This document shows, piece after piece, positions 4,372-47,190 of a DNA stretch of 64,000 bases (its first letter is position 1; every line of letters starts with the position of its first letter). Position numbers and translations under genes: made by a program. Source of the stretch: Escherichia coli O157:H7 (GTDB lineage Bacteria > Pseudomonadota > Gammaproteobacteria > Enterobacterales > Enterobacteriaceae); NCBI RefSeq assembly GCF_013167455.1, contig NZ_CP038328.1. One strand, 5' to 3'. The notes beneath the pieces are model-generated. The model searched no databases and had not been told where the DNA came from. It was given only the letters and a program-made list of their open reading frames with translations.

Positions 4372-6519
<2,148 letters not shown>

Positions 6520-44068: not shown

Positions 44069-46117
44069 ATGAACATGTTTTTTAGGCTTACCGCGTTAGC
44101 TGGCCTGCTTGCAATAGCAGGCCAGACCTTCGCTGTAGAAGATATCACGCGTGCTGATCAAATTCCGGTATTAAAGGAAGAGACGCAGCATGCGACGGTG
44201 AGTGAGCGCGTAACGTCGCGCTTCACCCGTTCTCATTATCGCCAGTTCGACCTCGATCAGGCATTTTCGGCCAAAATCTTTGACCGCTACCTGAATCTGC
44301 TCGATTACAGCCACAACGTGCTGCTGGCAAGCGATGTTGAACAGTTCGCGAAAAAGAAAACCGAGTTAGGCGATGAACTGCGTTCAGGCAAACTCGACGT
44401 TTTCTACGATCTCTACAATCTGGCGCAAAAGCGTCGTTTTGAACGTTACCAATACGCTTTGTCGGTACTGGAAAAGCCGATGGATTTCACCGGCAACGAC
44501 ACTTATAACCTTGACCGCAGCAAAGCGCCCTGGCCGAAAAACGAGGCTGAGTTGAACGCGCTGTGGGACAGTAAAGTCAAATTCGACGAGTTAAGCCTGA
44601 AGCTGGCAGGAAAAACGGATAAAGAAATTCGTGAAACCCTGACTCGCCGCTACAAATTTGCCATTCGTCGTCTGGCGCAAACCAACAGCGAAGATGTTTT
44701 CTCGCTGGCAATGACGGCGTTTGCGCGTGAAATCGACCCGCATACCAACTATCTTTCCCCGCGTAATACCGAACAGTTCAACACTGAAATGAGTTTGTCG
44801 CTGGAAGGTATTGGCGCAGTGCTGCAAATGGATGATGACTACACCGTTATCAATTCGATGGTGGCAGGTGGTCCGGCAGCGAAGAGTAAAGCTATCAGCG
44901 TTGGTGACAAAATTGTCGGTGTTGGTCAAACAGGCAAGCCGATGGTTGACGTGATTGGCTGGCGTCTTGATGATGTGGTTGCCTTAATTAAAGGGCCGAA
45001 GGGCAGTAAAGTTCGTCTGGAAATTTTACCTGCTGGTAAAGGGACCAAGACCCGCACTGTAACATTGACCCGTGAACGTATTCGTCTCGAAGACCGCGCG
45101 GTTAAAATGTCGGTGAAGACCGTCGGTAAAGAGAAAGTCGGCGTGCTGGATATTCCTGGCTTCTATGTGGGTTTGACAGACGATGTCAAAGTGCAACTGC
45201 AGAAACTGGAAAAACAGAATGTCAGCAGTGTGATCATCGATCTGCGTAGCAATGGTGGTGGGGCGCTGACCGAAGCGGTATCGCTCTCAGGTCTGTTTAT
45301 TCCTGCGGGTCCTATTGTTCAGGTCCGTGATAACAACGGTAAAGTTCGTGAAGACAGCGATACCGACGGACAGGTTTTCTATAAAGGCCCGCTGGTGGTA
45401 CTGGTTGACCGCTTCAGTGCTTCGGCTTCAGAAATCTTTGCCGCGGCAATGCAGGATTACGGTCGTGCACTGGTTGTGGGTGAACCGACGTTTGGTAAAG
45501 GCACCGTTCAGCAATACCGTTCATTGAACCGTATTTACGATCAGATGTTACGTCCTGAATGGCCAGCGCTGGGTTCTGTGCAGTACACGATCCAGAAATT
45601 CTATCGCGTTAACGGCGGCAGTACGCAACGTAAAGGCGTAACGCCAGACATCATCATGCCGACGGGTAATGAAGAAACGGAAACGGGTGAGAAATTCGAA
45701 GATAACGCGCTGCCGTGGGATAGCATTGATGCCGCGACTTATGTGAAATCAGGCGATTTAACGGCCTTTGAACCGGAGCTACTGAAGGAACATAATGCGC
45801 GTATCGCGAAAGATCCTGAGTTCCAGAACATCATGAAGGATATCGCGCGCTTCAACGCTATGAAGGACAAGCGCAATATCGTTTCTCTGAATTACGCTGT
45901 GCGTGAGAAAGAGAATAATGAAGATGATGCGACGCGTTTGGCGCGTTTGAACGAACGCTTTAAACGCGAAGGTAAACCGGAGTTGAAGAAACTGGATGAT
46001 CTACCGAAAGATTACCAGGAGCCGGATCCTTATCTGGATGAGACGGTGAATATCGCACTCGATCTGGCGAAGCTTGAAAAAGCCAGACCCGCGGAACAAC
46101 CCGCACCCGTCAAGTAA
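44069..46117 (+). CDS. prc: Tail-specific protease Prc (Tsp)
   Basis: 682 aa from the internal ATG (MNMFFRLTALAGLLA signal peptide); PDZ + S41 peptidase. Confidence 0.9.
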   Translation: MNMFFRLTALAGLLAIAGQTFAVEDITRADQIPVLKEETQHATVSERVTSRFTRSHYRQFDLDQAFSAKIFDRYLNLLDYSHNVLLASDVEQFAKKKTELGDELRSGKLDVFYDLYNLAQKRRFERYQYALSVLEKPMDFTGNDTYNLDRSKAPWPKNEAELNALWDSKVKFDELSLKLAGKTDKEIRETLTRRYKFAIRRLAQTNSEDVFSLAMTAFAREIDPHTNYLSPRNTEQFNTEMSLSLEGIGAVLQMDDDYTVINSMVAGGPAAKSKAISVGDKIVGVGQTGKPMVDVIGWRLDDVVALIKGPKGSKVRLEILPAGKGTKTRTVTLTRERIRLEDRAVKMSVKTVGKEKVGVLDIPGFYVGLTDDVKVQLQKLEKQNVSSVIIDLRSNGGGALTEAVSLSGLFIPAGPIVQVRDNNGKVREDSDTDGQVFYKGPLVVLVDRFSASASEIFAAAMQDYGRALVVGEPTFGKGTVQQYRSLNRIYDQMLRPEWPALGSVQYTIQKFYRVNGGSTQRKGVTPDIIMPTGNEETETGEKFEDNALPWDSIDAATYVKSGDLTAFEPELLKEHNARIAKDPEFQNIMKDIARFNAMKDKRNIVSLNYAVREKENNEDDATRLARLNERFKREGKPELKKLDDLPKDYQEPDPYLDETVNIALDLAKLEKARPAEQPAPVK

Positions 46118-46123
46118 TATCAA

Positions 46124-46152
46124 TCAGGCACAAGAAATTGTGCCTGATTTTT
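46124..46152 (+). terminator. Rho-independent terminator after prc
   Basis: aatcaggcacaagaaattgtgcctgatt followed by a T-run. Confidence 0.7.
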
Positions 46153-46231
46153 TAACAGCGGCAAGATGCCGTAAATCAGATGCTACAAAATGTAAAGTTG
46201 TGTCTTTCTGGTGACTTACGCACTATCCAGA

Positions 46232-46258
46232 CTTGAAAATAGTCGCGTAACCCATACG
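46232..46258 (+). promoter_or_regulatory. Sigma-32 (heat shock) promoter of htpX
   Basis: CTTGAAA at 46232..46238, 12-nt spacer, CCCATACG at 46251..46258; close to the sigma-32 consensus. Confidence 0.6.
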
Positions 46259-46308
46259 ATGTGGGTATCGCATATTGCGTTTTGTTAAACTGAGGTAAAA
46301 AGAAAATT

Positions 46309-47190
46309 ATGATGCGAATCGCGCTCTTCCTGCTAACGAACCTGGCCGTAATGGTCGTTTTCGGGCTGGTACTGAGCCTGACAGGGATACAGTCGAGCAG
46401 CGTTCAGGGGCTGATGATCATGGCCTTGCTGTTCGGTTTTGGTGGTTCCTTCGTTTCGCTTCTGATGTCCAAATGGATGGCATTACGATCTGTTGGCGGG
46501 GAAGTGATCGAGCAACCGCGTAACGAAAGGGAACGTTGGCTGGTCAATACTGTAGCAACCCAGGCTCGTCAGGCGGGGATCGCTATGCCGCAAGTGGCTA
46601 TCTACCATGCGCCGGACATCAACGCTTTTGCAACCGGTGCGCGCCGTGATGCCTCTCTGGTTGCTGTCAGCACCGGTTTGCTGCAGAACATGAGCCCGGA
46701 TGAAGCCGAGGCGGTAATTGCTCACGAAATCAGCCACATCGCCAATGGTGATATGGTCACCATGACGCTGATTCAGGGCGTGGTGAACACCTTCGTTATC
46801 TTTATTTCCCGTATCCTGGCGCAGCTTGCCGCGGGTTTTATGGGCGGAAATCGTGATGAAGGTGAAGAGAGCAACGGCAACCCGCTGATCTACTTTGCGG
46901 TTGCAACGGTTCTGGAACTGGTGTTTGGTATTCTGGCGAGCATTATCACCATGTGGTTCTCGCGTCATCGTGAATTCCATGCTGATGCCGGTTCGGCAAA
47001 ACTGGTTGGTCGCGAGAAAATGATTGCCGCGCTGCAGCGCCTGAAAACCAGCTATGAACCGCAAGAAGCAACCAGCATGATGGCTTTCTGCATTAACGGT
47101 AAGTCGAAATCGCTCAGTGAGTTGTTTATGACTCACCCGCCGCTGGATAAACGTATTGAAGCTCTGCGTACGGGTGAATACCTGAAGTAA
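46309..47190 (+). CDS. htpX: Heat-shock membrane zinc metalloprotease HtpX (M48)
   Basis: 293 aa; HEISH zinc motif. Confidence 0.95.

Follow-up and report, generated by a model that had tools for sequence, protein, structure and literature searches.

What directs the transcription of htpX in Escherichia coli O157:H7, and which form of RNA polymerase reads its promoter? The gene has been counted in the sigma-32 regulon since 1991 and in the Cpx regulon since 2002, and the standard E. coli databases include its promoter. Kornitzer and coworkers reportedly recognized it in 1991 as a sigma-32-dependent, monocistronic heat-shock gene, and heat-inducible, rpoH-dependent transcription of htpX is said to have been described both there and by Nonaka and coworkers in 2006. 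For the stretch of 64,000 nucleotides analysed here (hereafter, the window), a first-pass annotation made from the letters alone had proposed a near-consensus sigma-32 promoter with a short spacer ahead of htpX, and we assessed whether this assignment holds and how the promoter elements are arranged.

The stop codon of prc ends at 46117 and the ATG of htpX lies at 46309, leaving an intergenic spacer of 191 bp, which has the same length in MG1655, where htpX (b1829) is on the minus strand (a window position w corresponds to 1958885 − w in MG1655). A query of 351 bp across the site matched 5,421 of 5,426 complete E. coli genomes at an identity of at least 99%, and O157:H7 strains at 100%; the site was flanked by prc and htpX annotations in the E. 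coli genomes, the name htpX being given in 5,424 of them and in MG1655. The features of the spacer that bear on the sigma-32 assignment are as follows.

46122–46154, plus strand: intrinsic terminator of prc, with a 12-bp stem (hairpin 46122–46149), a GAAA loop and a T run
46232–46238, plus strand: −35 element CTTGAAA, a perfect sigma-32 −35, of which TTGAAA agrees with the sigma-70 −35 at 5 of 6 positions
46250–46257, plus strand: sigma-32 −10 element in the classical register, ACCCATAC, 11 nt past the 7-mer −35
46267, plus strand: A, the published transcription start (Kim et al. 2012, supplement), which leaves a 5′ UTR of 42 nt
46309–47190, plus strand: htpX coding sequence, 293 aa, a membrane zinc protease

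The terminator hairpin was predicted to be stable (dG −18.3 kcal/mol, z = −6.35). The promoter had been placed immediately after this terminator, which is loose, as about 78 nt, including a conserved CpxR-like box, separate the T run from the −35 box. The motif itself was found exactly as claimed, with CTTGAAA at 46232–46238, a 12-nt spacer AATAGTCGCGTAA at 46239–46250 and CCCATACG at 46251–46258, and the distance of 50 nt to htpX proved exact from G46258 to the ATG at 46309; the range originally given, 46229–46262, corresponds to the motif with 3–4 nt of padding on each side.

To score the site, a matrix was built from the MG1655 promoter regions of established sigma-32 targets, chosen via a published target table, by taking the best two-block match per promoter with spacings of 8–17 nt allowed (n = 18: dnaK P1, dnaK P2, clpP, lon, htpG, clpB, grpE, rlmE/ftsJ, ibpA, hslV, fxsA, groS, cnoX, ybeD, hspQ, topA, ycjX and prlC). 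CTTGAAA matched at 7 of 7 positions and reached the matrix maximum of 12.06 bits. Compared with the consensus CCCCATNT (also written CCCCATWT), ACCCATAC matched at 5 of 7 specified positions and scored 6.7 bits, the 18 training promoters spanning 5.8–13.0 bits. In a scan of both strands of the window, the htpX site was the best match at 18.8 bits, a score for which 0.22 sites are expected in simulated 64-kb sequences. The pattern CTTGAA-N10-16-CCCAT occurred once in the window against 0.39 expected, with at least one match in 27 of 100 shuffles, and a looser pattern was no more frequent across the window than expected by chance. The motif by itself is thus only mildly unusual at window scale. 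It is lifted beyond chance by its placement, correctly oriented in the 191-bp spacer ahead of a heat-shock gene, and further by its conservation and by the published start and ChIP signal described below. The runner-up match to the matrix, CTGGAAA-N15-CCCCATCT (17.5 bits, 5020–4991, minus strand), sits in an ORF of 323 aa (4372–5343, minus strand) with a methyltransferase-like LDVGCGSG motif, and is probably a chance match. One genome, E. coli SCPM-O-B-8794, carries a C→G change at the position equivalent to 46251 (AGCCAT), lowering the −10 score from 6.7 to 3.1 bits, and differs at two further positions that closely precede the −35 box.

In their supplement, Kim et al. 2012 (PMC3415461) report a single start for htpX, 42 nt before the ATG, with 73 reads, and the accompanying promoter string, which ends in ...CCCATACGATGTGGGTA / ...CTTGAAAATAGTCGCGTAACCCATACGATGTGGGTA, places this start at A46267, 9 nt downstream of ACCCATAC and 7 nt downstream of a sigma-70-type TACGAT. 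Start mapping thus located the published start directly downstream of the motif and not elsewhere. The RNA came from mid-log cultures grown in M9 glucose at 37 °C, and data from such unstressed cells cannot tell which sigma factor made the htpX transcript. The Cappable-seq supplement contained no entry for htpX.

Occupancy by sigma-32 itself was reported by Waldminghaus and Skarstad (2010; PMC2996942), who used a cleaned-up ChIP-chip protocol meant to remove false positives and detected the htpX promoter after heat shock with a log2 value of 1.6, the unshocked 30 °C control being subtracted; the probe position precedes A46267 by about 35 bp. In their list, htpX is one of the targets known beforehand from Wade 2006 and from the non-ChIP studies of Nonaka 2006 and Zhao 2005. 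The signal is in the lower third of their list, ranking about 27th of 34 detected sigma-32 targets. As a separate observation, Table S7 of Cho 2014 gives about 4-fold lower htpX (b1829) mRNA in an rpoS deletion in stationary phase (log2 about 11.8 in the wild type versus about 9.9); since dnaK falls similarly there, the effect is probably indirect and common to the whole heat-shock regulon.

The site was then compared with 80 htpX loci from other species (81 with E. coli). TTGAA-N13-(N)CC(N)T was present at the equivalent place in 48 of the 80, with invariant spacing and a freely varying spacer sequence, in Escherichia, Citrobacter, Enterobacter, Pectobacterium, Dickeya, Erwinia, Pantoea, Yersinia, Serratia, Rahnella, Edwardsiella, Hafnia, Budvicia, Photorhabdus, Providencia and Moellerella. 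The footprint TTGAA-N13-(N)CC(N)T-A..AT therefore describes 49 sequences, E. coli included, from Escherichia to Photorhabdus and Budvicia, and C46232, ahead of the TTGAA, was retained in 92% of these species. As a control for circularity, loci were anchored on the −35 alone with no requirement on the −10. Of the 81 loci, 61, among them all Enterobacterales, had [C/G/A]TTGAA[A/T] at a distance of 63–135 nt from the ATG, on its upstream side, and in these 61 the −10 region was still kept (C46252 in 52, C46253 in 56, T46255 in 55, A46256 in 58, A46259 in 51 and T46260 in 51). The A of CCCAT, A46254, is replaced by C or T in about one third of species. In three Yersinia/Rahnella loci the promoter lies 108–135 nt before the ATG, compared with the usual distance of about 77 nt, and the htpX 5′ UTR has gained 30–60 nt of lineage-specific sequence.

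Three further features, absent from the first-pass annotation, were recognized around the same −35 box.

46255–46260, plus strand: sigma-70-type −10 hexamer TACGAT, with a 16-bp spacer from TTGAAA and a 1-base overlap with CCCAT
46191–46206, plus strand: CpxR-like box TGTAAAGTTGTGTCTT (GTAAA-N5-GTctt), whose centre precedes the start by about 68 nt
46214–46218, plus strand: moderately conserved ACTTA, downstream of the CpxR-like box and ahead of the −35 (T46216 conserved at 90%, T46217 at 88%, A46218 at 80%)

A sigma-70 scan returned TTGAAA-16-TACGAT at 46233–46260 with 9 of 12 matches, and the conserved T46255, A46256 and T46260 are the positions of most weight in a sigma-70 −10. Upstream, TGTAAAGTTGTGTCTT was the most conserved non-coding block of the prc–htpX spacer (13 columns, 49 species): the columns of TGTAAAGTTGTGT / TGTAAAGTTnTGT (46191–46203) were 92–98% conserved in the 49 aligned species, except 46200. 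These columns lay outside the pattern by which loci had been selected, and their distance to the −35 box is fixed at about 35 nt. In E. coli, GTAAA-GTTGT-GTCTT agrees with the CpxR consensus GTAAA-N5-GTAAA at 5 of 5 positions in the first half and 2 of 5 in the second. A second GTAAA, less conserved, occurs 21 bp upstream of the box (46171–46175). The ACTTA block may represent a CpxR half-site in inverted orientation (GTAAG when read on the opposite strand) or belong to an UP-like element.

Few genes respond to the Cpx system as strongly as htpX: its induction amounts to 25-fold in cpxA24 and 38-fold upon NlpE overproduction and depends on CpxR, the value being 0.6-fold in a cpxR deletion; the control of htpX by Cpx is attributed to Shimohata 2002, as cited in another paper. 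The conserved CpxR-like box fits this strong Cpx control, and we infer from its similarity to the consensus that CpxR may bind at 46191–46206. No htpX site appears among the CpxR sites listed in PMC9600279. Considering these features together, the −35 box probably also serves an overlapping sigma-70/CpxR promoter, which the earlier annotation had missed, and one −35 box common to two holoenzymes is the most economical reading.

The spacing between the sigma-32 elements deserved closer attention. Measured uniformly from the CTTGAAA 7-mer to the CCCCATNT 8-mer, canonical sigma-32 spacers were 13 nt (n = 11) or 14 nt (n = 8, comprising 7 of the 18 matrix promoters and the rpoD heat-shock promoter), and the 11 nt of htpX falls outside the 13–14 nt seen in 19 of 19 canonical promoters. 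The spacer had been called 1–3 nt shorter than typical; the direction was right, and the figure becomes 2–3 nt on the uniform measure, the earlier count of 12 nt having arisen because the first position of the 8-mer had been left out of the −10. The 11-nt spacing (N11) was conserved in 33 of 49 species, and in the other 16 the best sigma-32 −10 was at N13, 2 bp downstream (CCCTACGA, CCTTATTT). Sites of canonical spacing were present at the equivalent place in Xenorhabdus (N14, CCCCATTT), Haemophilus (N13, CCCCACTA), Tolumonas (N13, CCCTATGA) and also Arsenophonus. In the dnaK sigma-32 promoter of Ehrlichia, a spacer 3 bp shorter (14-bp-equivalent) cut activity by 96%.

These data raise the question of whether sigma-32 in E. 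coli might read a −10 placed 2 bp further downstream, CTTGAAA-N13-CCATACGA, in which case the spacer would not be short at all, the likeness to CCCAT would be partly incidental, C46252 and C46253 would be the CC of an "extended −10", and A46256 would be the −11 adenine. Such a reading would bring htpX in line with the N13–14 of all 19 canonical promoters and, in cryo-EM numbering, would reproduce the geometry of dnaK P1, with CTTGAA at −35 to −30, CC at −15/−14 and the start at +1; the invariant columns C46252, C46253, T46255 and A46256, beside the varying A46254, agree with it, as do the 16 of 49 species in which N13 scores best and the clear N13–14 sites of Xenorhabdus, Haemophilus and Tolumonas. 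The E. coli 8-mer at N13, however, scored −3.6 bits versus +6.7 for ACCCATAC and lacks the T at position 6 that was found in 17 of 18 promoters. Moreover, C46251 was present in 32 of the 35 loci with A46254 and in 6 of the 26 loci without it (Fisher p = 6e-8, with loci counted without correction for phylogeny), and since C46251 accompanies A46254 in this way, the alignment suggests that CCCAT is kept as a unit across loci. Nor is the 9-nt gap from the CCCAT register to the start abnormal, as the lon start lies 10 nt past CCCCATAT; this same gap in lon makes the htpX gap non-diagnostic, and start-site geometry was thus rejected as a test of the register (in the Kim et al. 2012 data, the other canonical genes have 37 °C starts from other promoters). 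A third register, TACGATGT at N16, which resembles GACGATAT of the rpoD heat-shock promoter, was also tried and rejected: it scored −4.3 bits, and the start would fall only 4 nt past the 8-mer. On balance we lean towards N11 (CCCAT) as the sigma-32 register in E. coli and regard N13 as rather doubtful. A composite of the two can be offered tentatively, in which the −35 and the sigma-70-type TAnnAT have been frozen across Enterobacterales and the C-rich sigma-32 −10 has slid between registers 2 bp apart, so that Morganellaceae, Pasteurellaceae, Tolumonas and some Erwiniaceae may use N13–14 and Escherichia, Citrobacter, Enterobacter, Yersinia, Serratia and Pectobacterium may use N11. The −10 register given to each holoenzyme is likewise a proposal. 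The short sigma-32 spacing may, as the first-pass annotation suggested, tune the strength of the htpX promoter; the only hint is the lowish ChIP signal, which would be compatible with such an effect but is no evidence for it.

A more radical view would dispense with sigma-32 altogether and treat the site only as a CpxR-activated sigma-70 promoter, with CCCAT a coincidence and the heat induction of htpX indirect. The good geometry of TTGAAA-16-TACGAT, a start 7 nt downstream of it in unstressed cells, the conservation of precisely the T, A and T that matter most to sigma-70, and the strong Cpx dependence of htpX expression are all accommodated by this view. It is nevertheless very unlikely, because the sigma-32 ChIP-chip signal is specific to heat-shocked cells and agrees with earlier ChIP and non-ChIP studies, because the invariant CC at 46252–46253 has no role for sigma-70 and is a sigma-32 hallmark, and because full CCCCAT sites stand at the equivalent place in relatives. 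Less probable still, to the point of being barely credible, is that the match has no promoter function and arose by chance, or that it belongs to a sigma-E promoter (GGTGACTT ... TGAAA). The 0.2–0.4 matches expected at window scale leave some room for chance, and TGACTT-N16-TGAAA loosely resembles the sigma-E consensus, GGAACTT-N16-TCAAA; against both stand the start mapped directly downstream, the deep conservation with fixed spacing and the sigma-32 ChIP occupancy. The sigma-E candidate was rejected, its −35 lacking AAC, its −10 lacking C, and its −35 region being only 65–70% conserved.

Since the −35 and −10 scores, the mapped start, the ChIP-chip signal and the conserved boxes with invariant spacing bear out a sigma-32 promoter ahead of htpX, we consider it highly probable that the site is the known sigma-32 heat-shock promoter of htpX, with an overlapping CpxR-activated sigma-70 promoter. 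In the mechanism that we propose, sigma-32 RNA polymerase would recognize CTTGAAA (46232–46238) and the C-rich CCCAT(AC) (46251–46257), and transcription from A46267 or near it would yield an htpX mRNA that is monocistronic and has a leader of 42 nt, so that htpX expression would increase as sigma-32 builds up in response to heat or to misfolding stress in the cytoplasm. The −35 hexamer would be shared with TACGAT (46255–46260, 16-bp spacer) to form the overlapping sigma-70 promoter, which CpxR-P would most likely activate when bound at the conserved GTAAA-N5-GT box, some 68 nt ahead of the start. Activation of this kind would account for the strong response of htpX to Cpx. Sigma-32 would then answer cytoplasmic and heat stress, and sigma-70 with CpxR-P would answer membrane stress.

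The start of the htpX mRNA also contains an inverted repeat, CGCAtatTGCG (46269–46279), followed by TTTTG and spanning +3 to +17, and in Enterobacteriaceae, Erwiniaceae and Hafniaceae a CGC...GCG is seen again, with a loop that varies. RNAalifold found zero consensus pairs for a 5′-UTR hairpin, the 4-bp stem had 73% of cells paired, barely above controls, the htpX leader folded no better than shuffles (z = −0.83), and an Rfam search of 45900–46500 gave no match. A functional 5′-UTR hairpin is thus a weak proposition.

Comparison with known promoters places the site in a familiar setting. The htpX promoter of E. coli K-12 has the same locus and sequence as that in the window, with nothing different, and these exact hexamers are reportedly named by Kornitzer et al. 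1991 (J Bacteriol 173:2944) and in the sigma-32 regulon lists of Nonaka 2006, Zhao 2005 and Wade 2006. The closest parallel is lon, where GTTGAAT-N13-CCCCATAT overlaps a sigma-70-type TATACT lying two bp downstream of the sigma-32 register (CCCCA-TATACT, compare CCCA-TACGAT in htpX); unlike htpX, lon has a sigma-32 spacer of 13 nt rather than 11 and a sigma-70 spacer of 18 bp rather than 16, and carries no CpxR box. Its published 37 °C start is 10 nt past the sigma-32 8-mer and 7 nt past TATACT (Kim et al. 2012, PMC3415461). That position fits the sigma-70 register. Like htpX, dnaK P1 and groES carry CTTGAA in the −35 and a C-rich −10 that contains CCAT, but they have four Cs, a T as the eighth base and spacers of 13–14 nt, whereas htpX has three Cs, a C as the eighth base and a spacer of 11 nt. 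The resemblance to cpxP and degP consists of the GTAAA-N5-GT box upstream of the −35 and strong CpxR-dependent induction; they differ in that the second half-site is degenerate in htpX (GTCTT, compared with GTAAA-N5-GTAAA in cpxP and degP) and in that the CpxR site here is predicted. Extensive overlap of sigma-32 and sigma-70 promoters is said to have been the main claim of Wade and coworkers in 2006.

With the promoter already catalogued as sigma-32-dependent and Cpx-regulated, the assignment is correct but ordinary, and serves chiefly as a calibration, in that a sigma-32 promoter called from sequence only proved right. Only three points are mildly new, and they may already be contained in Nonaka 2006 or Shimohata 2002: a spacing that is both an outlier and conserved, the occurrence of two registers across Enterobacterales, and the close overlap of the site with a sigma-70/CpxR architecture that is itself conserved. 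Because the spacing is an outlier (11 versus 13–14 nt), is conserved, and coincides with the overlap with the sigma-70/CpxR promoter, htpX offers a convenient natural setting in which to ask how far the sigma-32 holoenzyme tolerates a shortened spacer and how two holoenzymes share a −35 box. If sigma-32 truly initiates from N11, it tolerates a spacer 2–3 bp below that of any canonical target, and it would be the overlapping CpxR/sigma-70 promoter that keeps the spacing in place.
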